This document shows, piece by piece, positions 37,599-53,226 of a DNA stretch of 64,000 nucleotides. The notes beneath the pieces were generated by a model that made no database searches, was not told where the DNA came from, and saw only the letters and a program-made list of their open reading frames with translations. This DNA comes from Vulcanimicrobiota bacterium (lineage in GTDB: Bacteria > Vulcanimicrobiota > Xenobia > Xenobiales > JADMJV01). The position numbers and the translations under genes were made by a program. The stretch spans positions 96,001-160,000 of the forward strand of contig JBFWNU010000002.1 of NCBI GenBank assembly GCA_050250895.1. Direction: 5' to 3'. Position 1 is the stretch's first letter; each line of letters starts with the position of its first letter.

Positions 37599-40500
37599 TC
37601 ACGATTGGTTCGCTGGCGAACCTATCAGCCTCCGGTAGGTCTGCTCTAGCAAGGGATGGCTCTCTCGCAGAGCGCGCAGGTCCAGGCGGGGTCCGAAGGC
37701 CCGTTCGAGCACCAGGTAGTCCCTTAGAGTGGCCCACTGGGCGGCCTCATCCATCAACTCTCCCAGGCGAAGGTGGTGGGCTCGGCGAGCCAGGGCCTCG
37801 CGCAGGGCCGGTCGCTCCAAAACGCTAGTGAGCCAGGGCCAGCCGGTCATGATATCGAGGCCCTCGGCCAGTCGGTGCAGTTGGTCATCGGCCAGGTGGG
37901 GCAGCCAGGCCAGCGTACCACCGGGAATTTGCTCACTGGCCAGGGCCGCTTGCAGTCGGCGCTCAGGCGAAATCACATCGGCCAGACCCAGCCCCCCTTG
38001 CCGACCACCACCCAGGCGGAGCCACTGGTCGAAGGCGATCCCGTCGCCCGCCAGGGCCTGGGCCAGCAGCGAGCCCTCCAGGCGAACGTCTCGGAAACCG
38101 GGCGGGGGCTCTCCCGGAGTCTTTCCCTGCGACCAGGCAAATAGGTTGAGGGCTTTGTCCGTCACGGCGCCGGTCAGACCGTAGCGCTGGGCCACCGCCC
38201 GGGGGTCGACCAGCCCCAGCCAGGCCACTGCTTCGAGCAACTCCGACGGCTTGCCCTGACCGCGTCGCAGGGCGCGCACCAATCGCCGGGTTAGTCGCGG
38301 CAGGGCCAACTCGCGCAGCGCGTTGAGCCAGTCGGGCTCGCGGCTCCACTCCAGGCCGGAGGGTGGCTCGTAGCTAGCCGCAGAGCCACCGCAGCGAGCC
38401 GCCGCCCGGGCCAGGGTCAGGCTGGTAGGATGGCGCTCGAGCAGATTCTCGAGCCAGTGGCGGTCGCGCGGGTCGGACTGAGTGCCCAGCGCCAAGGCCG
38501 TCTGCTCGAGTTCGTCCATCTCTCGGCAACGGCGCAGGCGGCGACGCAGGGGGCCGGTCAATTCCGGCAGGCGATGGCGCTGGGCCAGCCTCACCAGGGC
38601 GGGTTGCAACCGACCTTTCCAGCGCCGGCCGCCGAGATAGATGCGACCGTCTCGCAGCCAGGCCACCTCGATGAGATCCGTCACCCCAGCCACCGTTACC
38701 GAGGCCAGGCTCAGCAGGTCTTGCAGGCAATCCAGCAACTCTTCGATAGGCAGCAGCACGAGAGCCGGCGGAACTAGAACGTTGCCGCGGTGTTCGTGCC
38801 AGCTGCCGCCTACCCGGCCACCCGCCGACAGACGCAGAACGCGAGCCAGTTGACGCATTCCCTGCAGGCTGGGGCGGCAACCCTCGATAAGCGCCGAGAG
38901 CTTGTGATAGACCGGCCATTCGAGCCAGCCAAACCACCCCTCCCAGCTCAAGGCCACCAGCGTTTGGAGAGGATAGAGCGAGTTCAGCATGCTGGTCGAG
39001 GTGGGCAGGCCCCAGCGTATCCACCAGAACAGGTCCGAAGCACTGGCCGGAACAAAGCCCGGGCTGGTCAGACCCGATCGCAAGCAGAGCGAGGCCCAGG
39101 CCTGGCGACCATCGGACTTGTCTGGCCAACCGGTGGGGGGGCGAACCGACTGGTTGGACCAGGCCACCTCGCCGTCGTCGTACCAACAGTCGAGCGTTTC
39201 CAACGATTCGGGCTTGCCGCGCCCGGTCAGGCGCAATCCGCAGCGGGCCGCAAAACGGCGGCAGAACTCCTCCATCACCAGTTCGCCACCATGGAGGTGG
39301 CTGTAGGTATGATAGCCGAGCAATCCGCCGCCGTTGGTGGCGGCCAGTAGTTTGCGCATCACGATCTTGCCTTGCTGATCCAGACCGTAGACCACTCGCT
39401 TGTTGACCTCCAAGGCATTGAGCACGGCGCTCGAGGCGCACGAGCCACTTTCGAGCGATAGACAGGTGCCAAACGGCACGCCCATCTCGACGATTTGCCA
39501 GGGATCGTTTTCGACTCGCAGAGTCACGGCCCGACCGCTAATCTCGACCCTCTCCTCCAACCCGTCAAGCCAGGCCCGCACCTGCAGGCCACGACCGGCG
39601 GCCTGCTCCAGCCAGGCACGATTTTTGGGCGCCTGTTCACGCCAGTTCGAGAAGTTCCGCAAGCGCTCGAACAGTGGACCCAGCTCTAGCCCCACCCCCA
39701 AGAGGCGGGCTACCCGCCGTGGGTTCTCCTGGGGACCCTTCAGGCGCGTCAACAGCCGCCCGCAGGCTCGCTCTTGGGCCAGCTCAAGACAAGCCCGGCG
39801 CTCGCGCTCGAGAGCTTTGGCCAGATACTTGGCCTGCCGCCGGCCGTTGGCTCTGGCCAGACGCCAACGATGGGTGGGGTCTTCCAGGCGAGCCAGCCGA
39901 GCACTCAACTCGGACCTTTCGGGATAGTCCGCCACCAACTTGCGCAGGACAACCAGTTCGCGGCCATCGTCAGGCTCGAGCCGGGCCGGAAGGGGCGGTT
40001 TGCCCTGCCATTCGCGCAAGCGAACCAGTTCGTCGAGTCCACCCTCGGCCGGCGGCAGGGCGGCCAGCTCGTCGGTCAGGCCAGTGGACGGAAAGAGTTC
40101 ACCGATCACCGAGAGCAGCCTGGCCGTCGGTCGCTTGATTTCTGCCAGCAGCGACAACCCGAAGGCCTCTTTGTGCCCGGCTCGCTGAGCCAGGTTTTTC
40201 AAGGTTTCAGGGGGCACGCCGGCTTCGACCAGTCGGCAATACCAGGTCAGCAAGCGTCGATACTGGCGGCGGCCGAGATTCCACGCAAAGGGCAGGTCCC
40301 GGCCGGGCGACAGCTCGAGGGCGCGCACCACCAGGCTCGCTTCGCCCCCTAGCAAAAAGACAGCCCGGTAGGCCGCTGCCGAGCCAACAGAGAACAGTCG
40401 CGCGGCCTCATTCCAGGCCTTATCCGAGGCTTGCCGAGCCTCGTCCACGAACTCTAGCACCGTGGGGTCGGTCCCCTCCAGGGGCAGAAAGCGACCGGGC

Positions 40501-41132
40501 ACAATCAGCGACACGGCCAGGGCCGAGACCCAATCCCGCTGCTCGACCTGGGCTAGGCTGCGAGCCAGCCAGGCCTGTCGAAACTGACCCAGTCCGCTTT
40601 CCCCGTTGCCGGGGCACAGCGCCATCAGTTCTTCGAGCGACAGCGACAATTCGCCGGCCAGACGCAAGAAGAGACGGGCCTGAACCTGGCGACCCCTTCC
40701 GAGGAATCGCTGGTCAGTCCAGCCTTGCGCCCGGTCGACCCTGCGCAGGTGCGGCCGCCACGGACCCAGCAGGGCGCGCAGCGCGTAGCGCACCGCTGGG
40801 GTCGAGTAGAGCTGGTAGATGAGCAGCAGCGCTCGCCTGGCCGGTTCGGTGAAGTCGACTGGCAGGTGAGCAAAGACGGGCACTTCAAGCTGTGGCGGTT
40901 TGGCCAGTGTCCCCAGTCTGGCCCGCCGGGATGAATCCAGGCGCAGAGCCCGAGCGCCCGTGGCCGCAGCCAGCTGGGCGGGACACGGCGCCAGCTCGTC
41001 GAGCAACAATTCTGCCAGCCTCCGCGGACAGGGAGGCTGAGCGGCCGGCTGCAAGAGCCACCATTCTCCGGTGCTATGAAGGTAGCGAAAGCCCCGTTTT
41101 AGATCGCGTTTTCGCACAGCTAATATTGGCAT
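37599..41132 (-). CDS. Large hypothetical protein (1177 aa)
   Basis: Long uninterrupted ORF; central block DPWQIVEMG..FGTCLSL...NALEVNKRVVY looks like a conserved domain. Confidence 0.7.
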   Translation of the reverse strand: MPILAVRKRDLKRGFRYLHSTGEWWLLQPAAQPPCPRRLAELLLDELAPCPAQLAAATGARALRLDSSRRARLGTLAKPPQLEVPVFAHLPVDFTEPARRALLLIYQLYSTPAVRYALRALLGPWRPHLRRVDRAQGWTDQRFLGRGRQVQARLFLRLAGELSLSLEELMALCPGNGESGLGQFRQAWLARSLAQVEQRDWVSALAVSLIVPGRFLPLEGTDPTVLEFVDEARQASDKAWNEAARLFSVGSAAAYRAVFLLGGEASLVVRALELSPGRDLPFAWNLGRRQYRRLLTWYCRLVEAGVPPETLKNLAQRAGHKEAFGLSLLAEIKRPTARLLSVIGELFPSTGLTDELAALPPAEGGLDELVRLREWQGKPPLPARLEPDDGRELVVLRKLVADYPERSELSARLARLEDPTHRWRLARANGRRQAKYLAKALERERRACLELAQERACGRLLTRLKGPQENPRRVARLLGVGLELGPLFERLRNFSNWREQAPKNRAWLEQAAGRGLQVRAWLDGLEERVEISGRAVTLRVENDPWQIVEMGVPFGTCLSLESGSCASSAVLNALEVNKRVVYGLDQQGKIVMRKLLAATNGGGLLGYHTYSHLHGGELVMEEFCRRFAARCGLRLTGRGKPESLETLDCWYDDGEVAWSNQSVRPPTGWPDKSDGRQAWASLCLRSGLTSPGFVPASASDLFWWIRWGLPTSTSMLNSLYPLQTLVALSWEGWFGWLEWPVYHKLSALIEGCRPSLQGMRQLARVLRLSAGGRVGGSWHEHRGNVLVPPALVLLPIEELLDCLQDLLSLASVTVAGVTDLIEVAWLRDGRIYLGGRRWKGRLQPALVRLAQRHRLPELTGPLRRRLRRCREMDELEQTALALGTQSDPRDRHWLENLLERHPTSLTLARAAARCGGSAASYEPPSGLEWSREPDWLNALRELALPRLTRRLVRALRRGQGKPSELLEAVAWLGLVDPRAVAQRYGLTGAVTDKALNLFAWSQGKTPGEPPPGFRDVRLEGSLLAQALAGDGIAFDQWLRLGGGRQGGLGLADVISPERRLQAALASEQIPGGTLAWLPHLADDQLHRLAEGLDIMTGWPWLTSVLERPALREALARRAHHLRLGELMDEAAQWATLRDYLVLERAFGPRLDLRALRESHPLLEQTYRRLIGSPANQS

Positions 41133-41187
41133 AGGACTCGCGGGCTGTCAACAGGAGGAAAGGCTGTCCTACGAGTAACCACTGGTG

Positions 41188-42009
41188 ATGAAACGATTGC
41201 TACTGGGGATCATCACCGCCGCCTGGCTGGTCTCACCAGCCCAGGCCTGGAACGCCGAAGGCCACCGGACTGTGGCCGAAGTGGCCGGGCCCGACCTGTC
41301 GCCCCGCGCCAGGGCCGAGATTCGCCTGCTCTTGCACGAGCATCCCGACCAGGACATCAGTCTGGCCGAGGCCGCTGTCTGGCCCGACAAGATCCGCGAC
41401 GACGAGCGCTACGACCATCCCGAGTGGCACTACACCAACATCCCCTTCTTCGACGGGGTGGCCCCTCGCCGTCTGCCCGACCGTGTCGACATTCGCTGGG
41501 CCATCAATCACAACACTCGCATCCTTAAAGACCGGCGAGCCAGTCGACGCCAGAAGGCCATCGCCCTGAGCTGGCTGGCCCACCTGATCGGCGACATCCA
41601 CCAGCCGCTGCACGCCACCAGTCGCTTCGCGCCCGAGACTCCCAACGGTGATAGGGGAGGAAACGACTACCTCATTCATCTGCGCCCTGACGACGAGGGG
41701 GTCAAGCTGCACAGCTATTGGGACGCCGCCGGCGGCCTCTATCTGCACGGAGCCAACAGCAGCCGGGTGGTCCACCTGGCTCGCGATTTTCGGGCCGAAC
41801 TGCCCCGGGTCGAGGCAGAGGTTGCCGTGGTCGACCCGCGCGCCTGGGCTGATGAAAGCCACGACCTGGCCACCGAGGTTGTCTATCACGACCTGCATCC
41901 CGGTGACCTGCTCTCGAACGACTACATCACCAGGGCTCGCCAGACGTCGAAAAAGCGGATGACGCTGGCCGGCTACCGCCTGGCCGATTTTCTCAATCGA
42001 GTCTTCTAG
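41188..42009 (+). CDS. S1/P1 nuclease, secreted
   Basis: Signal peptide, then WNAEGH; WPD; WHY; HLIGDIHQPLH; DRGGN; LHSYWD. Confidence 0.93.
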   Translation: MKRLLLGIITAAWLVSPAQAWNAEGHRTVAEVAGPDLSPRARAEIRLLLHEHPDQDISLAEAAVWPDKIRDDERYDHPEWHYTNIPFFDGVAPRRLPDRVDIRWAINHNTRILKDRRASRRQKAIALSWLAHLIGDIHQPLHATSRFAPETPNGDRGGNDYLIHLRPDDEGVKLHSYWDAAGGLYLHGANSSRVVHLARDFRAELPRVEAEVAVVDPRAWADESHDLATEVVYHDLHPGDLLSNDYITRARQTSKKRMTLAGYRLADFLNRVF

Positions 42010-42044
42010 AAGTCTTCCAGGCGAACCACCCGGGCCGCGAGCCC
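42006..42044 (-). pseudogene. Extreme 3' remnant of an Rpn gene
   Basis: Reads GLAARVVRLEDF*, compared with AAQVGRLEDF and AAQVARLEDF* in the other Rpn loci. Confidence 0.6.
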
Positions 42045-42084
42045 ACCTCTGGACCAGTCACCAGCCGGCTCGTGCCAACCGGCT

Positions 42085-42118
42085 AAAGAAAAAGACGCGA
42101 TCCGGAGACCGCGTCTTT
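42085..42118 (-). terminator. Intrinsic terminator, copy 1
   Basis: Minus strand AAAGACGCG-GTCTCCGGAT-CGCGTCTTT running into a TTTTTCTTT tract. Confidence 0.85.
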
Positions 42119-43241
42119 CGAAGCTCGCCTTCTTCCCAGTCCAGCCAGCCTGCTTCGCTTTTTCGAGTCGAACACTCTAACATTCGCCTTTGACGCTGGG
42201 GCGTCACGGTAAATCGAATGTTACCGTTGCCTGGCCGCCTTCCCACCTGCACCAGGCTCCCGTGGTCCGCCTAAGCCGGCTCTTGTCGCCAAGATTTTCT
42301 CCCTCGCGGGACCGTCTAGTGCGCCGGGCCTCGTTTCGAATGCCTTCAGACGAAACGCTGCGCATTGCTCTGGTCTGTATGCTACCCCTGCTCCATTTTT
42401 CACGCTCTCGCGTCGCGGTTTCTAGCAGTTCCGCCCCCGCTTTCGGCGCCTTCGCGCCCGGCCCGAGTTGCCACCCATCGGCTCCACCGCCGTGGGCTTT
42501 CAGGCGATGCCTCGCCTTCCGTTTTGTCCAGTCGGCTCTGGGCGATTCTGCGGTCTGATCGCAACCCCGAAGTCTTTGGCGAGAACTCTCATCCTCGCGC
42601 GGCCACCTTCGTTCCGCTGCCCGAGTGCCGTCCTGCTCTCGAGCCCCCACTTCTACCCATCGCCGGCGCTGCTCTCGAGATGTCTCTCGGTCAGCCTTGA
42701 CCCTCGCGGTTCCGACCCGGGCCGTGGGCCCTGTCACCCCAACTAGAGGGCGACTTCAGCATCTCTTTGGGTCGATGCACCCCTGCGCTCTTTGTTCACA
42801 GCCTGCCGGCTGTCGCGGCTTGAGTTCTCGCTTGCGCTCGAACCGTCGCAGTTCCGCTGTTGTGCGCGTCACCGCACTCCCCACATCACCGGGCGGGGCC
42901 GGACACCTTCAGGCAGGTGCTCCTCACTCTCTCTTGCCACCGTGGAGTGGCGCGGCCTCGAGTGTTCCGCTGCCCGGTCACCAACCGGACTTCTCGCTTG
43001 GCCTTGTCTGGCGGCACTTCCGGGTTACCCCGGTCGCCCTTTCCCCTCGCGGGTTCCAAAGCCGGCTATCGAGCCTGTCTTCGTCTTTCCAGTGAAGACC
43101 CTGGAGACGCTTGCTGGTGCATCGCTTGCGCGGTAGACCACGAAGGTTTGCGTCTAACCTCTAGCGCTTCGACCGTGACCCGTCGGGGACGCTAGGCCCC
43201 TCCGCCTCTCTCGCTTGGCGGGGCGACTCCGTGACTGGAGT
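42085..43241 (-). ncRNA. Candidate large (~1157 nt) structured non-coding RNA, copy 1
   Basis: Bounded by a sigma70-type promoter and an intrinsic terminator; no conserved ORF; purine-rich transcript strand; many GNRA-capped hairpins; near-identical second copy. Confidence 0.75.
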
Positions 43242-43247
43242 GAATGC

Positions 43248-43276
43248 AATCTATCCCATCTCGCTCGATCCGTCAA
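43248..43276 (-). promoter_or_regulatory. Sigma70-type promoter of the candidate RNA, copy 1
   Basis: -35 TTGACG (43276-43271), 17-bp spacer, -10 TAGATT (43253-43248). Confidence 0.8.
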
Positions 43277-43337
43277 CCCCTGATTTTTTCAGGCTTTGAA
43301 GCTCTCTAAGGCCAGTCCTGATCTGGGTTTTGCGTGT

Positions 43338-43380
43338 TTGTCCACCGGGTTATCCCCAATCGTGTGTCCGTTTGTTCACA
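43338..43380 (+). promoter_or_regulatory. Three DnaA-box-like 9-mers, copy 1
   Basis: TTGTCCACC (43338), TTATCCCCA (43350), TTGTTCACA (43372) versus consensus TTATCCACA. Confidence 0.5.
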
Positions 43381-43475
43381 AGCTGGCAACCCGATGTTTG
43401 CCTTCTGTTCGTCGTCGGCGTCGAGGCAAGGCGCCCTGGTCGCCAGGCTACTAGATCGGTCACGAAGAATGTCCG

Positions 43476-44459
43476 ATGATGCGGAACCTTCTCTTGCTGA
43501 CCTGCCTGCTGGCGCTGGCCGCCTGCAGCCGGCCCAGTTCACCCGTGGTCGAGACCCCCCGAGCAACCCCTTCGGCCGCTCCGGTGAAAGCTTTGCCCGC
43601 CTTCTCGGGCAAGCTCATCCGCGAGTTCGAGCACGATGGGTTTTACGATCAGTATCTGGCCTTCAGTCCCGATGGGAGGTATCTGCTCAGCTGGCTGCCC
43701 GAAAAGGTGACGGTCTTCGAGGTGGCCTCCGGCAAACCAACCGGAAAGTTGCCCGAGGGACATTTTCCCCTGGGTTTCTCGACCGACGGCAAGACTCTCA
43801 CCACTGGCGGGGACGGTGTGCTCGAGAGCTGGAAGCTGCCCTCGCTCGAGCCACTCGGTAAGACCAAGACCGTCAAGCAGACGGGCGCTGATGGTTTTCG
43901 CCTGGTCGAGTGGAAGAGCGGCAAGAAGTCGCTGCTGGCCGCGGGAGGGCGGGTGATGGCCTGGCCTTCGGTGGCTAAGGACTACCCCGTGAGCCCCTAC
44001 AGTGTCTACTACTCGAGCGGGTCAAACCTGCTCGCCTTTTCGAACGGCCAGGCGGCCACCGTGCTGGATCCTGCTCACGAGGAGCAGGCCTGGGACACGC
44101 CCGCCCTGGGTCGCAGCGTCACCAGTCTGGCCGTAAGCCACGACGGCAAACTGCTGGTCTCGGGCAGCATGGACGGCTATGTCAGTGTGGTCGACATTCC
44201 GTCGCGCCAGCTGCTCGCTGCCGACGGCGTGCCTGGAGAAATTCGCTGTCTGACGCTTGCGTCCGACAATCGCACCATCGCGGTCGGCTGCGGTGACGGG
44301 ATGTCGGCGGTCGCGATCCTCGATGCCGCAAGCCTGAGGCCGGTGGGCGTCGTCAAGCCGGGCCTGTCCAACACCTGGGCGCTAGCCATCAGCCCTGATG
44401 GCAAGACCCTGGCCACCGGCAGCGATGATGGCAAAATTCGCCTCTGGCAGCTGTATTAA
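43476..44459 (+). CDS. WD40 repeat lipoprotein
   Basis: LLALAAC lipobox; repeated AFSPDG / AVSHDGKLLVSGSMDG / ISPDGKTLATGSDDGKIRLW. Confidence 0.9.
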   Translation: MMRNLLLLTCLLALAACSRPSSPVVETPRATPSAAPVKALPAFSGKLIREFEHDGFYDQYLAFSPDGRYLLSWLPEKVTVFEVASGKPTGKLPEGHFPLGFSTDGKTLTTGGDGVLESWKLPSLEPLGKTKTVKQTGADGFRLVEWKSGKKSLLAAGGRVMAWPSVAKDYPVSPYSVYYSSGSNLLAFSNGQAATVLDPAHEEQAWDTPALGRSVTSLAVSHDGKLLVSGSMDGYVSVVDIPSRQLLAADGVPGEIRCLTLASDNRTIAVGCGDGMSAVAILDAASLRPVGVVKPGLSNTWALAISPDGKTLATGSDDGKIRLWQLY

Positions 44460-45633
44460 AGCAAGAAGTCTTCCAGGCGGCCCACCTGGGCCGCTTTGAG
44501 GGCTAACTGCCGGAGTTCCTCCAGGTCGTTGAGTTTAGCCAGACTTGCTTCGAGTTCGGCTGGTAATTCGCCAAATCGCGAGGACAGCAACGACTTGACC
44601 ATCCAGCGAGAGTTCTCGATCTGACCTTGCTCCAGTCCAACCTGACGGCCTTGCTCGAGTCCAACCTGACGGCCTTGCTCAAGTCCAACCTGACGGCCTT
44701 GCTCGAGTCCAACCTGGCGACCCTGCTCGAGGCCTTCCTGACGGCCTTGTTCCAGGCCCTTCTCGATACCCATCTGTTCGAACGAATGAATGTAGGGCAC
44801 GGCGTCCTCCTTTTCATACTCTGCCAGCTTCTGGGCAAATTGTAAAGAGTAGGGCGGTGGCAGGGTCATCATCCAATCCAATAACCCGGCTAGCTTTAGA
44901 ATGTCGGCTCGGCTGAGCCCTCGATGAAACAACCCACGATGCAAGCGGGCCTTGATATCGACCCGGCGGCGATACTTGCCCTGAGTCGCCTGCGTCCATA
45001 GGTGGAATGACACGAAGGCCGCGAAAGGGTTCGGGTGTTCTTCGAGCTCGGCCAGGCGCGGCCGCAGGTCGAGCAGCTTGACGGTGGGGAAGTGGAACTC
45101 CAGCCGGCAGCCGAAGCGATCGCGCATGAAGCTCCGAGGCCTCCAGGTCGGCGAGGTGTCGCCCAGGATGGCCAGCGAACAGAGATCTTCTCCGAAGCGA
45201 TCAAAGACCCGATAGTTGTAGATGTAGACCCGGCGGGCGAAGTGGTCGTCGGTTTGGGCCTGGACTTCCACCTGGAAGTAGAACCAGCCTGGGCGACCGT
45301 CGAGCAGGCGCACCTTGAGCAGCAGGTCACACTCGCGCGGGCCCATTTCGGCCTCGCGGGTGATAGCCTGCAGCTCCTTATCGAGAGAGGTTACCGGCTC
45401 AGACCAGTCGACCGCACTGGCGATAGCCGGGAAGAAGAACTCCAGGAAGGGCTGGACCACCTTCGGGCGTCGGCCCGGCCGCGGCTTGACGGGAACGGCG
45501 AGAACGCAAGATCAGAATAGGAGGCTGGGCAGGGTCGGGCGTTCTCGCCGCTCCCTTCGGCGCTTCGCGCCGCGCCGCTGGGCCGACTTTGGATGGCGTC
45601 TTTCCAGGGCGAATCATAGCAATCGTTCGGCAT
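44456..45633 (-). pseudogene. Rpn/YhgA-like gene disrupted by a palindromic insertion
   Basis: MPNDCYDSPWKDAIQ | 125 bp | KVVQPFLEFFFP; paralog 36525 reads DSPWKDALVDFFQPFLEFFFP contiguously; 24-bp repeats encode GLEQGRQV. Confidence 0.88.
45464..45588. mobile_element. Palindromic miniature element inserted in the Rpn gene
   Basis: Terminal IR GTCGGCCC/GGGCCGAC; inner IR CGGCGAGAACG/CGTTCTCGCCG; family motifs CGCGGCTTGACGGGAA and CGCGCCGCGCCGCTGGG. Confidence 0.88.
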
Positions 45634-45741
45634 AGCCGTGAATGCTTCGGCGAGGCTCGAGACCGTCCCGTCGAGCGAATTGCTAACTTCCGTTTACTCC
45701 CGGTTCGAGGGCGAATGCAAAGAGCCGCGAACCTTCTCTCC

Positions 45742-47085
45742 ATGGCAAAGAGCGAGTTTCTGGCCTTGCAGCGGGCCGTCGGTCGGGTCGATTCGAGCGG
45801 AACCTTCACCGTCGCGGGCCATCAAGCGGCCTTCAAGCTGGGAGCTCACCAACTGCCCCGCTCGAGCGCCTGGATCCTCAAGCTGGTTCAGGCCGCCGTG
45901 GTGAGCGGAGCCGAGCAGATCCGAGTTCGACAGGGAGCGGTGGCCACCGAGATTCGCTTTCAGCCTGACGAACTGCCCGAACTCGCCCAGGTTCAGGCCG
46001 CTTTCGAGAAGCCGGCCGGGAAGCACTCGCGCTTTCTCACCCATCTGCTGGCCGGGCTTTTGTCGGCGGCCGTGGGTCAGGGCCGCCCCTTCACCCTTCG
46101 CCTGAGCCAGACCGACCAGCAGACCGAGTTCGTCTGGACCGGCGAAGAGCTGTTGCAAAGCGCTCGGACCCGCCCGGCCAAGAACCTGGAGGTCTTCATC
46201 GGAGTAGCCCGAGCGGTCGGAAATCCGGCTGCCCAGAACGCGGCCGAGGCCAAGGAGTTGCAAGAGCTGGCTCACGCTTGTCCGGCCGATCTGGTGCTCG
46301 ATGGGCGTCGTCTCGACCCGGTGGCTCTGACCCACCCTCGGCCGGCTCCCAAACTGGTCTCTCACTGGCCCTATCGTTTCTCTTCGAAAAACGGCATCGA
46401 GGCCTGGATCTATCTGGCCGTGGGCGGCCTCTCGGGTCAGGGCCTGCGGCTGGCTCCTAGCGTGGCCCGCTCGGCCCATCGTCGAGCCCTCTCCGACCGC
46501 CTCACCGATGCCCGACCGCTACTGGTGGCTCTGCCCGACGACCCCGATTGCCTGGCTCTGTTTAGATTGGATTACTTCTACGACCTGGGCCGCCAAAAGC
46601 CAATCCCTCGGGCCTCCACCTGCCGCTGGCTGGTCGATGGGGTGGTGGTGGACCAGCACGATTTGCCCCTCGATGAAAGTGGGGTGGCCCTGACGCTCTA
46701 CCTCGACGGTAGCGACCTGGCGACCGATCTGTCTGGCTTCGCCTTCCAGGGCGACACGGTCGACACGCGCAATCAGCGCATCGACCAGGCTGTCGAGCGG
46801 CTGCATCGCGAACTTCCCGAGCTTGGCTCACAGCTGGGCCGCAGCCCGACCCGACCCGGCTGGAAGTACACCATCCTTGGCTTCCTTTGGTGCCAGCTCT
46901 GGTTTAGCCCATTCTATTTGCTCGTCACGCCGCTGGCGTTGCCCCTGGTTCCTTACACCGCTGTGGCCACTCTGGCCGACCTGCGCTCGACCAAGCGCAC
47001 CCTGATCAGTCATCTCGCCGCGGCCCTGGAGCTTTTTCATCTAGGCCTCGGCCGTCGGCCGGCTGAGGCACTCTCCGCCGACTAA
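45742..47085 (+). CDS. Hypothetical protein with C-terminal TM helices (degenerate GHKL/HATPase-like N-terminus)
   Basis: DSSGTFTV...WILKLVQAAV..GA; hydrophobic C-terminus; start tentative. Confidence 0.65.
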   Translation: MAKSEFLALQRAVGRVDSSGTFTVAGHQAAFKLGAHQLPRSSAWILKLVQAAVVSGAEQIRVRQGAVATEIRFQPDELPELAQVQAAFEKPAGKHSRFLTHLLAGLLSAAVGQGRPFTLRLSQTDQQTEFVWTGEELLQSARTRPAKNLEVFIGVARAVGNPAAQNAAEAKELQELAHACPADLVLDGRRLDPVALTHPRPAPKLVSHWPYRFSSKNGIEAWIYLAVGGLSGQGLRLAPSVARSAHRRALSDRLTDARPLLVALPDDPDCLALFRLDYFYDLGRQKPIPRASTCRWLVDGVVVDQHDLPLDESGVALTLYLDGSDLATDLSGFAFQGDTVDTRNQRIDQAVERLHRELPELGSQLGRSPTRPGWKYTILGFLWCQLWFSPFYLLVTPLALPLVPYTAVATLADLRSTKRTLISHLAAALELFHLGLGRRPAEALSAD

Positions 47086-47119
47086 AAAGAAAAAGACGCG
47101 ATCCGAAGACCGCGTCTTT
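47084..47119 (-). terminator. Intrinsic terminator, copy 2
   Basis: Minus strand AAAGACGCG-GTCTTCGGAT-CGCGTCTTT running into TTTTTCTTTTT. Confidence 0.85.
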
Positions 47120-48238
47120 CATAGCTCGCCTTCTTCCCAGTCCGGCCAGCCTGCTTCGCTTATTCGAGTCGAACACTCTAACATTCGCATTCGACGCTGG
47201 GGCGTCACGGTAAATCGAATGTTACCGTTGCCTGGCCGCCTTCCCACCTGCACCAGGCTCCCGTGGTCCGCCTAAGCCGGCTCTTGTCGCCAAGATTTTC
47301 TCCCTCGCGGGACCGTCTAGTGCGCCGGGCCTCGTTTCGAATGCCTTCAGACGAAACGCTGCGCATTGCTCTGGTCTGTATGCTACCCCTGCTCCATTTT
47401 TCACGCTTTCGCGTCGCGGTTTCTAGCAGTTCCGCCCCCGCTTTCGGCGCCTTCGCGCCCGGCCCGAGTTGCCACCCACCGGCTCCACCGCCGTGGGCTT
47501 TCAGGCGATGCCTCGCCTCCCGTTTGTCCAGTCGGCTCTGAGCGATTCTGCGGTCTGATCGCAACCCCGAAGTCTTTGGCGAGAACTCTCGTCCTCGCGC
47601 GGCTGCCTTCGTTCCGCTACTCGAGTGCCGTCCTGCTCTCGAGCCCCCACTTCTACCCATCGCCGGCGCTGCTCTCGAGATGTCTCTCGGTCAGCCTTGA
47701 CCCTCGCGGTTCCGACCTGGGCCGTGGGCCCTATCACCCCAACTAGAGGGCGACTTCAGCATCTCTTTGGGTCGATGCACCCCTGCGCTCTTTGTTCACA
47801 GCCTGCCGGCTGTCACGGCTTGAGTTCTCGCTTGCGCTCGAACCGTCGCAGTTCCGCTTTGTGCGCGTCACCGCACTCCCCACATCACCGGGCGGGGCCG
47901 GACACCTTCAGGCAGGTGCTCCTCACTCTTTGACCACCGTGGAGTGGCGCGGAGTCGAGTGTTCCGCTGCCGGTCACCAACCGGACTTCTCGCTTGGCAT
48001 TGTCTGGCGGCACTTCCGGGTTGCCCCGGTCGCCCTTTCCCCTCGCGGGTTCCAAAGCATGGCCTTCGAGCCTGTCTTCGTCTTTCCAGTGAAGACCCTG
48101 GAGACGCTTGCTGGTGCATCGCTTGCGCGGTAGACCACGAAGGTTTGCGTCTAACCTCTAGCCCTTCGACCGTAGCCCGTCGGGGGTGCTAGACCCCACC
48201 GCCTCTCTCGCTTGGCGGGGCGACTCCGTGACTGGAGT
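47084..48238 (-). ncRNA. Candidate large (~1155 nt) structured non-coding RNA, copy 2
   Basis: Direct repeat of 42085-43241 with scattered substitutions and 1-2 nt indels; same promoter and terminator. Confidence 0.75.
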
Positions 48239-48244
48239 GAATGC

Positions 48245-48273
48245 AATCTAACCCATCTCGTCCGATTCGTCAA
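48245..48273 (-). promoter_or_regulatory. Sigma70-type promoter of the candidate RNA, copy 2
   Basis: -35 TTGACG (48273-48268), 17-bp spacer of different sequence from copy 1, -10 TAGATT (48250-48245). Confidence 0.8.
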
Positions 48274-48334
48274 CCCCTGATTTTTTCGGGCTTTGAAGCG
48301 TCTCAAAGCCAACCCCGAGCAGGGTCTTGCGAGT

Positions 48335-48377
48335 TTGTCCACCGGCTTATCCCCAGCAGCGTGTCGGTTTGTTCACA
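48335..48377 (+). promoter_or_regulatory. Three DnaA-box-like 9-mers, copy 2
   Basis: TTGTCCACC (48335), TTATCCCCA (48347), TTGTTCACA (48369); same spacing as copy 1. Confidence 0.5.
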
Positions 48378-48516
48378 ATCTGATAACCTGGTGTTTACAT
48401 TGCACGGTCGACTTGGTGAGTCGTCAATTAACCTGTTTGTGACGCCGGGCAGCTACCTTGAGCTCTATACTTGTGGTGGCCAAGTCTCTCTCACGAACCC
48501 AATGCAGGAGGAGCCC

Positions 48517-49302
48517 ATGAAGGTTGGCTCAATGAAGCGCCAACAGGCCATTGGTGCGCTCGAACGTCGTCAGCAGGCCGCTCTGTGTCAGGGAGATCAA
48601 GATCTCGCTACCCAGCTCTCGAAGGACCTGGTCTTCATCAAGAAGAGTCGCGGCGGCACGGTGCTCGACATGTATCGAGGGGCGGTTCGCCGCAGTCAGC
48701 GCGAGGATTGGGTGGCCCAGCACACCAGTCTTTGTGGCGCGGTCGGCGGGGCGACCCTCGGAACGACTGCCGGGGCCGTTATCGGCCAGGTGAGCGGCGG
48801 GACGGCCGTGCTCGGCGGTGTATTGGGTTGCCTCCTAGGGACGGCCTTTGGCGCCCTGGGTGGTCTGGCCTATAACGACTTTTATGACTGCCCGCATGTC
48901 GGTTCTGACATCGTGGCAGCTCTCGATCGCAACGCTTCGCTTTTGGCTAGCGAAGTCAGCCAGCCGACCCACCAGCTGCCCACCATCGCTCGCAGCGAGG
49001 TCGAAAAGCAGCTCAACAACGACAAACAACTTCTCTCTGACGAGGGCAAATTGGCCGAGACCATCCAGCTCGAGAACGCTCTCAACCGGTTTAACAGGCA
49101 CTCTGACATGAATCTGAGCGATCTGCTGATCTGGGCCCTGAGCGAGCGCAACTCTGCCACGGTAAAGTCGCTGGGCACGCTGCTGAGCCACGAGATGACC
49201 ACTGATGAGATCAAGCAGCTGATGGTCACCACCGAACCGGGCAGTCTGGAGTGGCTCGAAGACGAGATCAAGATCGGCGACCAGACTCTGCCCAGAGTCT
49301 AG
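48517..49302 (+). CDS. Hypothetical glycine-zipper membrane protein
   Basis: AGGAGG RBS before MKVGSMK; Gly-rich hydrophobic hairpin. Confidence 0.7.
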   Translation: MKVGSMKRQQAIGALERRQQAALCQGDQDLATQLSKDLVFIKKSRGGTVLDMYRGAVRRSQREDWVAQHTSLCGAVGGATLGTTAGAVIGQVSGGTAVLGGVLGCLLGTAFGALGGLAYNDFYDCPHVGSDIVAALDRNASLLASEVSQPTHQLPTIARSEVEKQLNNDKQLLSDEGKLAETIQLENALNRFNRHSDMNLSDLLIWALSERNSATVKSLGTLLSHEMTTDEIKQLMVTTEPGSLEWLEDEIKIGDQTLPRV

Positions 49303-49390
49303 ACGACTCGGCGTGGCCCGGGAAGCTGCCTGCGTTTGCCGGAGCGAATCGTGTTCGGGAGGAGTTTCGTTGTCCGCGCCTCTAACTTGA

Positions 49391-50719
49391 GTGGAATTCA
49401 AAAGCATGGAGGCGCGAATGTCCACCAGGGACCTCGAGGAAAAGCCCCGCACGTGGGTGGGGGTGCAGGTCGAACTAGGCCTGACCACCATAGACCGCGG
49501 GAAGGCTGACGCGGTCATATGGGTTGACGGCGAAAGTCAACGGTTGCGTAGCCTTGATTTCGTTCCGGTTGGCAGTGGCCTGACCCACTTTTCTCGCGGC
49601 CTGCTTCAAGCAATCCACGATGGAGAAGCTCCACCGCCGGGTCGTTTGCTGGTCGAGGCGCCAGCCCAGGTGACTGCCCTGGGCGGGCTCTCAGAACTCG
49701 ATGGCATCTCGATGGAAGTGGACCCGAGTGCGACTTCACTGGCCTGGTCCACGATGAGACCTATTTTGGAGCAGTTAAAGGCCGGAGCGGGCTACGGCTA
49801 TCTGATCGACCACGATCTCGACCCGGATAGGGTCGGCGAGTTCTTTCGCAAGGTCGACGAGTTCTACGATTTAGAGCTGCCGAGCGGCTATCTGATGCTC
49901 GAGGGCTTAAGGGCTGAGCCCCTCTATCTCCACCTCGCGCCGCTGCGGACGTTGCCGGCTTTAAGGGTCTACTATTCTCTGGACTTCTACAACCTCATCG
50001 CGTCGGGCCTAACCGGGGCGGTCTTTTCGTTCCCGTCCCTATTCTTGACTCAGGCTTCGCCCAAGGTCCCTCACCTGGCCCTGGAAGTTGAGGTTCTGAG
50101 CAAAGGGTGGGTGGTTCACCCGCTGGGGTTGCCGATGCTGCTCAACCTTGGCCGCCCTGAGCGGGTGCATCCGACGGCCGACGAGCTGGAGCTGATGATC
50201 TCTGTTTTGGACCATTTGATAGCCTTTCTTGACCCCGACTCAGGGCGCCCCCCGAGCGAGGTCGTGATGGAGTGGTTCGAGCCCTCGGAACTCACCCCGG
50301 TGCCCGAAAGCGACCAGCAGCTCGGCGCCCGCCTCGAGGAGCTTTGGGCTCAGGGCGTACCCTATCAGGCCATCGGCCTGGCCACACGGGCGGTTAGCCT
50401 CCAGGCCAGCTCGCTGAGGCGCCACTGGCTGGCCGACCTCTACTTCAGGCTGGACGTGTACGACGAGGCCTCGTTACTTTGGAGCACGTTTCGCGAAGAC
50501 AAGACGCCCGAGTGGCAGGCGGTGGGAGCGCTCTGCGAATGTCGGGTCGGTCATCTGGCCTCGGGTCGGCGGCTTCTGAAGAAGGTGCTAAAGAAGGCTC
50601 CCGACCTCGGGGCGCGCCTCTTGCAGGCCAGCTCGGAGGACGAGTTCAGCAAGCGCTGGCGCGGGCATTGGCAGAGCTGTCCCGAGGCGGTCCAGGTGCT
50701 GCGTGAGTTGGTGGGCTAG
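49391..50719 (+). CDS. Hypothetical protein with a TPR-like C-terminus
   Basis: 442-aa ORF; start uncertain. Confidence 0.65.
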   Translation: MEFKSMEARMSTRDLEEKPRTWVGVQVELGLTTIDRGKADAVIWVDGESQRLRSLDFVPVGSGLTHFSRGLLQAIHDGEAPPPGRLLVEAPAQVTALGGLSELDGISMEVDPSATSLAWSTMRPILEQLKAGAGYGYLIDHDLDPDRVGEFFRKVDEFYDLELPSGYLMLEGLRAEPLYLHLAPLRTLPALRVYYSLDFYNLIASGLTGAVFSFPSLFLTQASPKVPHLALEVEVLSKGWVVHPLGLPMLLNLGRPERVHPTADELELMISVLDHLIAFLDPDSGRPPSEVVMEWFEPSELTPVPESDQQLGARLEELWAQGVPYQAIGLATRAVSLQASSLRRHWLADLYFRLDVYDEASLLWSTFREDKTPEWQAVGALCECRVGHLASGRRLLKKVLKKAPDLGARLLQASSEDEFSKRWRGHWQSCPEAVQVLRELVG

Positions 50720-51083: not shown

Positions 51084-52262
51084 CTATCGCCGCACCTCCC
51101 TGGCTTCCTCGTTTGTTGGCTCCGTTCCAGGACTCGTCCCGGTGGTAGGCGGGGGCGAGACCATCTTCTGGGTCTGGGCGTCGATCTCACCGAGAATGGT
51201 CAGCCGGTCGTTCGCAATCAGATTTGGCGAGGCAAGAACGGCCCGCACCAGGGCGTCGTAAGAAGGATCTGCCTTTACTTGATTGATGAGCGGCGTGGTC
51301 TGACTCTCATTGGCAACTTGGTTAAAGGCGGGTCCAGGGGAGCCAGAGGGCGAAGCCGGCATTTTATGCCTGGAGGCGGCTAGCAGTGCCCGTTGTGCCA
51401 CAAAGTCTCGATAGGGCTTGGACAGCTCTTTGAGGGAAAACCAGTCCTCGCGGTGGGTTGTATGGGTGACCTCCACCAACATCATGGAGAGATCCTCTCT
51501 TTGGAACCCTGCAGGTACCCGAGAGATGAGCTTGGTCGTGGCCTCGGTCGGGTCAGCCCATGTGCAGTCTCTGACCATCGTCGTTACCTTGTTGATGAAC
51601 TCGTTGTCAATTGCTCTATTGTTGGCCTTGTAAATGACATAGTGACCCGCTTGCGGGCGTTCCAAGACAGTCGAGTAGCTTACCTCCAGCACGTTATCCC
51701 GGAATTGTAGAACAGATTCAACGCCGCTCATAATCGTCTCCGAGTATTCATCAGCATTGGCGGGTACGCTCACACCAGCGATCTTGGTTACGGAGGCCAG
51801 GACCTGAAAGAAGGGCTGGGTCAAATTGTCGTCTTCGAGTTTGGCCTTCACTAGAGCCAGATTCAGCCGAATGCCACCCCCAACATACGGAGCGGGGCCC
51901 AATAAAGGCTGGTTAAAAATCATGATGCGTTGGTGGTCTTCACCATGCTCCTTCTGAAAGACGTTAGGGTCGCCGAGGCAACTCACTTGCTTCCATTCAC
52001 CGTCGCTGGCGTCGAGGATGGAGATCTGACTACGGACCGAGGCAAAATACCGTCTCCAATACCATTTGTCTTCGTCGAGGGTGGCTGCCCGAGCCCGAAT
52101 TTTGACGTAGAACTGTTGATGATTTCTTAGGCAATCGGCGTCTGTCTCGCTGGGAATGAATATAATTCCAACCTGGTCGTCGGCACCTGCCTGAGCCCCC
52201 CAGACTAGTAAGAGCGTGACAGCTAAGCCTATTATTCGTAATACCGGTATTGCTTTGTTCAT
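51084..52262 (-). CDS. Hypothetical exported protein, lower GC
   Basis: Signal peptide; AT-richer codon usage. Confidence 0.7.
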   Translation of the reverse strand: MNKAIPVLRIIGLAVTLLLVWGAQAGADDQVGIIFIPSETDADCLRNHQQFYVKIRARAATLDEDKWYWRRYFASVRSQISILDASDGEWKQVSCLGDPNVFQKEHGEDHQRIMIFNQPLLGPAPYVGGGIRLNLALVKAKLEDDNLTQPFFQVLASVTKIAGVSVPANADEYSETIMSGVESVLQFRDNVLEVSYSTVLERPQAGHYVIYKANNRAIDNEFINKVTTMVRDCTWADPTEATTKLISRVPAGFQREDLSMMLVEVTHTTHREDWFSLKELSKPYRDFVAQRALLAASRHKMPASPSGSPGPAFNQVANESQTTPLINQVKADPSYDALVRAVLASPNLIANDRLTILGEIDAQTQKMVSPPPTTGTSPGTEPTNEEAREVRR

Positions 52263-52461
52263 TCTTCCCCCTGGGTGACGTAGTTCTTTGCTCTGATAGA
52301 TTGGAGTGGCCTATGACGTGGATATTGATTGATAGGCCTGGCTTGCCGCATCCCCCAGGTGGCCAGAGAGAGGCTTGTTTTGGGCTTGGCTCGTTGGGTG
52401 TGGCTACATCGAATCGACGCTCGGTGATAGGTCTGTCCCCGCGCGTGTAGAAGTCTTGGGC

Positions 52462-53226
52462 ATGGACCGCCTGTTGAAGATCGGATTTGAATGTGTTGGT
52501 CACTGGACGTTGCAGAACGGCCAGCCGGTTTGCCAGCTCGAACGCCACACCACCTCGCATAATCTCCTCTATGCTCTGGTCAGCGACGGAGACGTGAAGT
52601 ACCTCGGCAAGACCATCAAAGACCTCAAAACGAGGATGGACCAGTATCAGAACCCTGGGTCCGGCCAGTCGACCAACATCAAGAACCACGAGAACATCAG
52701 GCGGCTGTTGCAGGCGGGGGAGGCCGTTGATGTGCTGGTTCTGGTCGACAACGGGCTGCTCCACTACGGAGACTTTCACGTCAATCTCGCCGCTGGACTC
52801 GAGGATAGTCTGATCGCGACCCTCTCGCCCGAATGGAACGGGTCACGACGGAGAAAGGCGGCCGTCGCGCGCTCTGGGGCCGTGACCGTATCGCCTCCCC
52901 CTGAAGCCGCTGTCCCCCAGCGGTTGCCCGGTCGAAGTTTTCGCATCACACTGGGTAAGACCTATTACGAGAAGGGTTTCTTCAACGTGCCGACCGACTT
53001 TTCGGACCGATTCGGCGAGGACCGCGAGCGCGTGTCTATCTTCTTGGGAGAGAGCGGACGGGTCGTCGACGGGTATATCAACCGGACCGCCAATCCCGAC
53101 TCTGGTGCGCCCCGGGTCTTCGGAGGCGCGACGCTACGGAACTGGGTTCAGAGCACCTTCAAGTTGAATGAGGCCGCCGAGGTCGAGGTCGTTTCTCCTC
53201 GCGAGATGGTCATCCGTCGGCCCTGA
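52462..53226 (+). CDS. GIY-YIG nuclease family protein with an extra C-terminal domain
   Basis: LLYALV...VKYLGKT...LKTRM..Y...GLEDSLI....PEWN. Confidence 0.8.
   Translation: MDRLLKIGFECVGHWTLQNGQPVCQLERHTTSHNLLYALVSDGDVKYLGKTIKDLKTRMDQYQNPGSGQSTNIKNHENIRRLLQAGEAVDVLVLVDNGLLHYGDFHVNLAAGLEDSLIATLSPEWNGSRRRKAAVARSGAVTVSPPPEAAVPQRLPGRSFRITLGKTYYEKGFFNVPTDFSDRFGEDRERVSIFLGESGRVVDGYINRTANPDSGAPRVFGGATLRNWVQSTFKLNEAAEVEVVSPREMVIRRP

Follow-up and report, generated by a model that had tools for sequence, protein, structure and literature searches.

What is encoded by the two long, nearly identical repeats found on the minus strand of the 64,000-nt stretch of Vulcanimicrobiota DNA analyzed here (the window)? 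The initial annotation read them as an independently transcribed, structured kilobase RNA. This reading is supported by the analysis presented below: each repeat is almost certainly a gene standing on its own that encodes a large non-coding RNA (ncRNA) with extensive structure. When this gene is considered as part of a modular ncRNA gene family whose product forms a scaffold particle, the resulting account is probable, and the best available overall, with its parts resting on evidence of very different strength.

Promoter-to-terminator organization and genomic distribution

The two direct copies lie on the minus strand where they had been annotated (42085–43241 and ~47084–48238) and are 96.4% identical across the RNA, but they do not constitute the full complement of the genome, which is six rather than two: they belong to a set of paralogues with identities of 65–96% in a 9.5-Mb genome. 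The promoter hexamers previously noted before both copies (TTGACG and TAGATT, 17 nt apart) were recovered with spacers differing at 4 positions, and a promoter scan returned 4 promoter-like sites, versus 0.7 ± 0.9 in shuffles. The same promoter geometry is present in 23 of 27 distinct homologue 5' regions; in 20 of these the spacer measures 17 nt and the distance is unchanged. At the other end, both copies finish in a GC-rich, 9-bp terminator hairpin followed by a T-run, and a terminator is found in all six paralogues of the genome, even if the terminator scanner flagged that of copy 2 only (47120–47091), copy 1 being one T short of its T-count rule. The annotated end of similarity between the copies, a few bases beyond this hairpin, was likewise found, although the copies are also alike, at lower identity, for ~190 nt 5' of the start. 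Within this upstream region, a conserved element is kept in the four type-A paralogues (c1–c4), and sequence farther upstream is unrelated. Transcription of each gene proceeds along the minus strand, beginning at a sigma-70-type promoter of its own and ending at the intrinsic terminator (Table 1).

Table 1. Location of the features identified in the two RNA genes (window coordinates).
Feature	Position	Strand	Description
RNA gene copy 1	42085–43241	−	~1,157 nt, promoter to terminator; structure by covariation, no coding signal
Promoter, copy 1	43248–43276	−	TTGACG, 17 nt, TAGATT; predicted start 43241
Conserved upstream element, copy 1 (candidate regulator site)	43336–43382	−	~−95 to −140 from start; TGTGAAC..CACA and GGGGATAACCCGGTGGACAAAC-like blocks
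5'-terminal hairpin, copy 1	43226–43241	−	ACUCC-loop-GGAGU; stem covariation seen in paralogues c5 and c6
GNRA-loop hairpin (GAGA or GUGA), copy 1	43196–43224	−	Stem pairs CG/AU/GC; GNRA in 44/44
First weak core repeat, copy 1	42719–42799	−	cmsearch, model R1, E = 0.025; equivalent site matched in copy 2
Second weak core repeat, copy 1	42506–42583	−	cmsearch, model R1, E = 0.047
Module C, best-conserved	42187–42410	−	Nearly invariant core 42318–42403: CAGGGGUAGC hairpin, GCAGCG-hairpin-GGCCC; UGGUGCAGG..GGCGGCCA stem
Intrinsic terminator, copy 1	42085–42115	−	UCCG loop, 9-bp stem, T5CT3
RNA gene copy 2	47084–48238	−	~1,153 nt, 96% identical to copy 1
Promoter, copy 2	48245–48273	−	TTGACG, 17 nt, TAGATT; predicted start 48238
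Weaker core repeats, copy 2	47507–47583, 47719–47799	−	Model R1, E = 0.01 and E = 0.09
Strong module core, copy 2	47319–47404	−	Model R1, 108.9 bits
Intrinsic terminator, copy 2	47084–47120	−	UUCG loop, T-run

The ends of short metagenome contigs (≤1,700 nt) fall close to these predicted boundaries. The first base of 24 out of 31 such contigs maps to HMM positions 68–73 (+8 to +13 relative to the predicted start), and the contig tails examined end within the terminator stem. These 24 transcript-like contigs span 1,145–1,441 nt (median 1,282), covering nearly the whole RNA. Judging from their end positions, the short contigs may derive from RNA, for which there is no direct evidence. The contig collection searched returned only sequences of ~1 kb or longer, and short products would not be visible in it.

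By the titles of the records in which it occurs, the RNA family is confined to the class Candidatus Xenobia of the Vulcanimicrobiota. Two families of the order have homologues of 1.0–1.7 kb, with several loci in each genome, and one genome of a third family of the class also harbors them. An all-against-all comparison of flanking ORFs at 24 loci (the six copies in this genome and 18 fetched loci of at least 4 kb) revealed no conserved neighbor, the flanking-ORF clusters obtained being accounted for by redundant or syntenic loci only, and a Pfam analysis of 20 ORFs flanking the six copies yielded unrelated functions or no match. The neighbors of the four copies other than copies 1 and 2 are ordinary genes, for pyroglutamyl peptidase, GGDEF, methyltransferase and menaquinone synthesis functions. 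A cis-regulatory leader or riboswitch was considered and rejected, given that the RNA has its own terminator, the gene 3' of copy 1 is convergent, and no gene family is shared beyond local synteny.

Covariation and absence of coding signal

The consensus structure predicted with RNAalifold comprises 275 base pairs, of which 89.6% are canonical and 113 present two-sided compensatory changes; when the 3' partners were slid as a control, 37–40% canonical and 4–12 compensatory pairs were obtained. RNAalifold employs covariation, and its pair counts are therefore partly circular. In a structure-blind MI-APC ranking of 989,121 column pairs, predicted base pairs accounted for 23 of the top 25 and 40 of the top 50 positions, with the caveat that shared ancestry among the 46 sequences is not fully corrected in this test. 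A strand test counted 890 G-U cells versus 346 A-C cells. The purine-rich strand and the GNRA loops highlighted in the initial annotation are general properties of the family, with a mean purine content of 57.6% over the 46 homologues and 340 GNRA instances among 555 four-nucleotide hairpin loops; seven hairpins hold the GNRA class in 41–46 of up to 46 homologues while N and R vary. The substitutions said to keep the loop class between the two copies (GUAA/GCAA, GAGA/GAAA and UCCG/UUCG) are each present. Single-sequence folding gave no energies significantly below those of shuffles in either of two ~290-nt sub-regions, namely the first 292 nt of the RNA (z = −1.22) and the region of module C (z = −0.71).

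A few of the top-ranking MI pairs outside the predicted structure look like real additional pairs (e.g. 619:659). The long-range MI pairs that link position 296 with 718, 744 and 925 have the appearance of subtype correlation, and no pseudoknot is claimed.

The frame-breaking indels reported between the two copies were recovered as internal gaps of 1, 2, 1 and 1 nt, and the 177-aa ORF of copy 1 (42204–42737) is reduced to 151 aa in copy 2 (47205–47660). Eight independent close pairs presented 39 indels (≤12 nt), none of them a multiple of three, and mismatches by position modulo 3 (223/195/224, p = 0.28) displayed no codon periodicity. In copy 1, no open frame exceeds 183 codons, compared with a longest frame of 184 ± 48 in shuffles, and no ORF of at least 25 codons is common to more than 17 of the 46 homologues, the shared ORFs examined lying within the well-conserved 3' module region. 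A protein-coding gene was hence rejected, there being no conserved frame, no indels in threes and no third-position bias. The homologues, the strong covariation and the lack of coding signal all favor the reading of the initial annotation, and the RNA fulfills the descriptive criteria of large ornate bacterial ncRNAs (>500 nt, covarying helices, conserved unpaired nucleotides, no coding signal).

Homologous modules within the RNA

On the basis of its sequence, the RNA consists of concatenated homologous modules, each ~180–260 nt long and three to six in number. The best-conserved of these, module C, is supported by 44 sequences, and its match to model R1 scores 108.9 bits. In sister-lineage RNAs, four to six modules are clearly tandem: model R1 matches five times per RNA in four loci of family f2, with a period of ~205–265 nt, four times in genus g2 and six times in locus L053, and TRF reports a period of 258. 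The module HMM matched one further site, located upstream within the same RNA, in paralogues c5 (E = 1e-13) and c6 (E = 3e-10) and in subtype-B contigs (1e-5 to 3e-9). An alignment of 37 modules supports 41 pairs, 19 of which are compensatory. A conserved hairpin is present at the module junctions of the sister lineage, and the GNRA-loop hairpin type at 43196–43224 is found again in every module of sister-family RNAs. The window subtype comprises about three modules and retains a strong core in the last one only; since its additional core repeats are weak (E 0.01–0.09), the count of three derives in part from more divergent relatives. The six paralogues, the restriction to a single class and the homologous repeated modules go beyond what the initial annotation had described.

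Relation to known large RNAs and possible functions

The RNA matches no described RNA family in Rfam 15 or in the literature searched. Rfam 15 comprises 4,227 models, including OLE, GOLLD, ROOL, raiA, group I/II introns, RNase P, tmRNA, 6S, rRNAs and self-cleaving ribozymes. The whole window returned no match at the gathering threshold; searches at E ≤ 1–10 did not place the RNA in any family either, with only three terminator-sized matches in 41900–43500 (E 1.4–7.2) and two chance-level matches among six divergent family members (E ~0.25). No description of this RNA was found in the literature, with most subscription journals and supplementary motif lists (e.g. that of PMC5737381), which might bear on novelty, falling outside the coverage of the search. 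Housekeeping-RNA identity was ruled out, as the genome carries its RNase P RNA (305 bits) and 16S rRNA (1,601 bits) at separate loci. A separate, weak 6S candidate (30.7 bits, below cut-off) is located elsewhere in the genome.

Large complex bacterial RNAs of unknown function are, to our knowledge, very few, mainly OLE, GOLLD, ROOL and raiA, and we know of none among these four with tandem homologous modules in one chain and several diverged paralogues per genome. Work on each of the four has led to new biology, RNA-only nanocages being the latest case. GOLLD (~0.8 kb) and ROOL (~0.6 kb) are phage- or prophage-borne, frequently with tRNA genes adjacent, and OLE is a single-copy RNA of the Bacillota with linked partner genes. 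The Xenobia RNA shares with GOLLD a large ornate architecture, many conserved helices, GNRA-type loops and an unknown function, but it is longer (1.0–1.7 kb), chromosomal, multi-copy and dispersed, contains tandem homologous modules and lacks an Rfam match. A phage association akin to that of GOLLD and ROOL was rejected, with no match in viral contigs or in 50,697 phage records, no tRNA genes in the window and ordinary chromosomal neighbors; a plasmid search was also without match. Compared to ROOL, likewise a large ornate RNA of unknown function, it is about twice as long, belongs to another lineage, has no Rfam match, and its repeats are internal to one chain instead of being copies of a monomer. 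Like OLE, it is a large, well-conserved structured ncRNA limited to one bacterial group, but it has several paralogues per genome, no conserved neighbor and no Rfam match. The family is a longer example of a large bacterial RNA of unknown function than OLE, GOLLD, ROOL or raiA; ribosomal RNA aside, possibly no bacterial RNA of this kind is larger. Its internal repeats constitute a built-in evolutionary record of large-RNA growth by duplication, the covariation already in the alignment is enough for modelling the fold, and the lineage for which the family is a marker, uncultured and hardly studied, has large genomes.

GOLLD, ROOL and OLE are reported to form RNA-only homo-oligomers through A-minor and kissing-loop contacts, GOLLD and ROOL assembling into multimeric and homo-oligomeric nanocages, respectively (PMC12286853), and OLE (~600 nt) is a component of an RNP (PMC9723947, PMC12054373). 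By analogy, the conserved GNRA loops and helices of the Xenobia RNA could dock its modules onto each other, yielding a particle of RNA that is compact and pseudo-symmetric, as a single-chain counterpart of these homo-oligomeric assemblies. Its role would be that of a structural scaffold or multivalent platform present in abundance, rather than that of a messenger or cis-regulator. With no three-dimensional, oligomeric-state, partner or phenotype data, this mechanism remains tentative and falls short of being probable. Its most far-reaching version is more doubtful still: that this is the largest structured non-ribosomal bacterial RNA class (1.0–1.7 kb), grown by concatenating three to six ornate modules of ~180–260 nt, folding into a pseudo-symmetric RNA-only particle equivalent to a covalently linked, single-chain ROOL/GOLLD cage, and produced from diverged paralogues whose products may co-assemble and which would be highly expressed in environmental Xenobia.

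The modules could instead each bind the same protein, small RNA or ligand, so that three to six copies of it are titrated or organized, in the way that CsrB/RsmZ titrate CsrA and 6S RNA does for RNA polymerase. The occurrence, three to six times per RNA, of one core motif with invariant unpaired nucleotides is compatible with such a multivalent sponge or platform, as are the strong promoter, the several gene copies and the conserved upstream element, which suggests co-regulation. CsrB/RsmZ sponges and tandem riboswitch aptamers also repeat one recognition unit per transcript; there, however, the unit is a short hairpin, or else an aptamer that occurs once or twice upstream of a gene, whereas the units of the Xenobia RNA span ~180–260 nt with several conserved hairpins each, far more elaborate than known sponge sites, in a free-standing RNA with its own terminator and, for copy 1, a convergent 3' gene. 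No linked candidate partner gene was found. Titration or multivalent binding overlaps with the preferred scaffold-particle explanation and, while unlikely, is not excluded.

Alternatively, the kilobase transcript might be a precursor, cut by a nuclease or by self-cleavage into active, unit-length module RNAs. The regular ~205–265-nt period of the head-to-tail repeats in the sister lineage and the hairpin conserved at their junctions, together with contig 5' ends 8–13 nt inside the predicted transcript, would fit this scheme, but the transcript-like contigs cover nearly the whole RNA (in a collection blind to short products), the Rfam search identified no known self-cleaving ribozyme, and in the window subtype the modules are diverged and long-range helices are predicted. 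Processing into module RNAs is therefore regarded as very unlikely.

A selfish or mobile repeat (IS-derived, MITE-like or satellite) devoid of RNA-level function is suggested by the dispersed copies and by YhgA-like putative transposase paralogues that lie no more than a few kb from copies 1 and 2. It is nevertheless highly improbable: the 40000–50000 interval contains no inverted repeat of at least 40 nt (shorter terminal repeats and target duplications were not covered), four of the six copies have ordinary gene neighbors and no transposase nearby, no IS family, phage, plasmid or viral contig was matched, and paralogues down to ~65% identity keep their base pairs through compensatory change. 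Even less credible is a gene, on whichever strand, that codes for protein or has a dual function. Long open frames favor it, especially those in antisense (up to 348 codons, locus L010), but open frames are no longer than in shuffles, and the complement of the purine-rich sense strand is poor in stop codons.

Paralogous RNA genes and their predicted promoters

The two RNA genes of the window, copy 1 and copy 2, lie in direct orientation and are 96.4% identical across the RNA. The initial annotation described a duplicated gene, which holds for the window itself, but not for the genome, where an nhmmer search identified six copies in 9.5 Mb (c1-c6; type A comprises c1-c4, including both window copies, and c5 and c6 are divergent). 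The finer observations on this pair were reproduced in the alignment: promoter hexamers and spacer length are identical but four spacer positions differ, a GC-rich 9-bp hairpin and a T-run close each copy, with similarity lost within a few bases past the terminator, 1-2-nt indels separate the copies, and the GUAA/GCAA, GAGA/GAAA and UCCG/UUCG loop exchanges are all present. The terminator scanner flagged copy 2 alone, copy 1 being one T short of its T-count rule. Promoter-like sites numbered four in the 6.6 kb scanned, versus 0.7 ± 0.9 in shuffled sequences, and the copies remain alignable, at lower identity, for about 190 nt further upstream.

Coordinates of the RNA genes, associated elements and neighbouring features (window positions unless a contig is named)
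Feature	Position	Strand	Details
RNA gene, copy 1	42085-43241	minus	
RNA gene, copy 2	~47084-48238	minus	
Promoter, copy 1	43276-43248	minus	TTGACG, 17 nt, TAGATT
Promoter, copy 2	48273-48245	minus	TTGACG, 17 nt, TAGATT
Upstream element	43336-43382 and ~48333-48379	minus	~-95 to -140 from RNA start
Paralogue	C1:1926557-1927709		88% identity; nhmmer
Paralogue	C1:114854-116006		83% identity; nhmmer
Two divergent paralogues	near C1:2753087-2754076 and C1:3139481-3140505		nhmmer
S1/P1 nuclease gene	41185-42009	plus	Pfam E=3e-55
Paralogous ORFs, ~335 aa	36525-37538 and 44456-45460	minus	second: weak YhgA-like putative-transposase match, E=6.7e-4
Repeat array	44601-44758		24-nt tandem repeat, 5 copies
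ORF, 1,177 aa	37599-41132	minus	no Pfam match
Further ORFs	45589-47085, 49391-50719, 51084-52262, 52375-53226		no Pfam match
RNA-family gene pair, L023 (related genome, G013:C57:24262-27361)	1211-2703 and 2705-3072	minus and plus	head to head

Each of the six paralogues has a -35 box of the TTGAC type, a -10 box reading TAnnnT and a terminator. Of the other genomes searched by BLAST, 10 of 15 from the same family contained homologues, 1.03-1.7 kb long, and none of 25 from other families did. An analysis set of 46 near-full-length sequences was assembled from the source genome, its relatives and metagenome contigs, dereplicated at 97% and with the two divergent own copies added. Among 27 distinct 5' regions of homologues, 23 carry TTGACN-N16-18-TANNNT, in 20 cases with a 17-nt spacer and with the conserved 5' motif at a constant distance. 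Of the four regions without such a promoter, three were taken for chance matches of the anchor pattern, since their genome sites are absent among the nhmmer-reported copies. Judged from sequence comparison, the position of the predicted promoter is thus conserved across the RNA family. The four type-A paralogues also have in common an upstream element, TGTGAAC..CACA followed by a GGGGATAACCCGGTGGACAAAC-like sequence, with unrelated outer flanks; it suggests common regulation, and a regulator binding site is only a candidate.

Absence of coding signal and comparative evidence for structure

The claim that the gene is non-coding was supported. Across eight independent pairs of closely related homologues, none of the 39 internal indels of up to 12 nt was a multiple of three (28 of one base, eight of two, one of four and two of eight), and mismatches showed no codon periodicity (223/195/224 over the three codon positions, p=0.28). 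The longest stop-free stretch in copy 1, 183 codons, does not exceed that of shuffled sequences (184 ± 48), and no ORF of at least 25 codons is common to more than 17 of the 46 homologues; the shared ORFs inspected all sit within the well-conserved 3' module region. Antisense open frames reach 348 codons among homologues, which is attributed to the purine richness of the sense strand (57.6% on average), because the complement of that strand is poor in stop codons. A coding gene is nearly excluded by the indels, the missing periodicity and the lack of a widely shared ORF.

An RNAalifold consensus on a MAFFT alignment of the 46 sequences comprises 275 predicted pairs, with 89.6% of cells canonical and two-sided compensatory change in 113 pairs, each with at most 15% non-canonical cells. 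When the 3' partners were slid by 1-3 columns as a control, 37-40% of cells were canonical and 4-12 pairs compensatory. All 989,121 column pairs were also ranked without reference to the structure, using mutual information with average-product correction; predicted pairs took 23 of the top 25 and 40 of the top 50 positions, with antiparallel stacking among the top pairs (10 and 18 pairs) and none in the parallel control. The expected covariation is therefore found, with the reservation that these counts overstate independence, the sequences being related and the alignment not structure-aware. G-U cells outnumber A-C cells (890 vs 346), which is consistent with the minus strand being the transcribed RNA. 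The proposed retention of GNRA loops also extends to the family: seven hairpins hold the class in 41-46 of up to 46 sequences, with N and R varying. Because the folding energies of two sub-regions were no lower than those of shuffles (z=-1.22 and z=-0.71), the predicted structure rests on comparison, not on thermodynamics.

A metagenome scan for the family recovered 44 contigs. The 5'-side end falls at HMM positions 68-73, 8-13 nt past the predicted start, in 24 of the 31 contigs of at most 1,700 nt; these 24 measure 1,145-1,441 nt (median 1,282), and the tails inspected among such contigs stop partway through the terminator stem, in its 5' half. We infer from these end positions that the 24 contigs are assembled transcripts, because the ends of DNA contigs ought to scatter and breaks caused by repeats would be expected upstream of the promoter, where paralogues diverge, not at +10. 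The samples were not traced and there are no direct RNA data.

Modular architecture and possible function

The modular architecture of the RNA is a new observation of the present analysis. An HMM of the module, a homologous unit of ~180-260 nt, was built from the region of highest conservation (copy 1, RNA positions 838-1050) and finds a second, more upstream site within the same RNAs (c5, E=1e-13; c6, E=3e-10; subtype-B contigs, 1e-5 to 3e-9; weaker in subtype A). R1, a covariance model of the 86-nt module core, widens the family to another genus (g2, 5/6 genomes) and to family f2 (5/5), where its matches are arranged in tandem. With search filters off, four f2 loci contain five matches each (period ~205-265 nt), two g2 loci four each (~185-230 nt) and the locus in family f5 three. 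At locus L103, a promoter and a ~90-nt leader are followed by five head-to-tail modules (257, 258, 249, 205 and ~190 nt) and a terminator, and the TRF period is 258 nt. An alignment of 37 modules yields 41 pairs, 19 of them compensatory, and these take in a hairpin spanning every junction between modules. Taken together, the tandem matches, the L103 layout, the TRF period and the module alignment identify the family, at the level of sequence, as a concatemer of one ancestral module. L053, a transcript-sized metagenome contig of 1,161 nt with six core motifs spaced ~135-230 nt apart, is a compact many-module variant. R1 matches each window copy strongly once (108.9 bits) and weakly twice (E 0.01-0.09), at positions that agree between the copies; in this subtype the modules have diverged, with a strong core kept in the last module only.

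Our best guess, which remains tentative, is that contacts of the GNRA and A-minor type would pack the modules into a compact pseudo-symmetric particle working as a scaffold or multivalent platform. The main rival, a sponge for a repeated partner, overlaps with the scaffold reading and is considered rather improbable. A precursor array is less likely because the contigs are full-length, and a mobile element is considered very unlikely. The nearest known kind to the proposed scaffold RNA is the large ornate RNAs OLE, ROOL and GOLLD, which it resembles in ornateness, GNRA richness and absence of coding; it differs in length and in being multi-copy and chromosomal, with a unit repeated inside one chain. 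Those RNAs are reported to form RNA-only homo-oligomers (PMC12286853). Neither the window nor divergent family members match any Rfam 15 model, as anticipated for a novel RNA, and the genome carries separate RNase P RNA and 16S rRNA. No description of the RNA was found in the literature searched, which did not cover supplementary material.

Distribution and genomic context

R1 was positive (E<=1e-4) in 18 of 151 genomes sampled over the phylum, source genome included: 11/15 in family f1, 5/5 in f2 and 1/1 in f5, of the same class, with no matches in the remaining 18 families, including same-order f3 (0/19) and f15 (0/71). Searches of phage, plasmid and viral sequence collections gave no match to the RNA. 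Scanning one genome per species with a 26-mer pattern returned 10 stretches, labelled Candidatus Xenobia (a class within Vulcanimicrobiota), Vulcanimicrobiota or 'bacterium', plus two discordant labels. Xenobia-type RNA occurs in genomes titled 'uncultured Burkholderiales' and 'Selenomonadaceae' (L034, L036, L037); the discordant labels probably reflect mis-binned or mis-named MAGs. The RNA could be usable as a lineage marker.

Genes beside the RNA differ from locus to locus, and comparison of the flanks of the examined loci revealed no recurrent neighbour gene family beyond synteny. Copies 1 and 2 are surrounded by an S1/P1 nuclease, a WD40 protein and a weak YhgA-like protein, and the other four copies lie near a pyroglutamyl peptidase, a GGDEF protein, a methyltransferase and a menaquinone enzyme. 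The nuclease gene is convergent with copy 1, ending ~75 nt from its terminator, and is absent next to the RNA at other loci. The repeat array encodes the C-terminal part of the YhgA-like ORF as a repeated, Q/E/G-rich peptide. At L023, two RNA-family genes diverge from nearly one transcription point.
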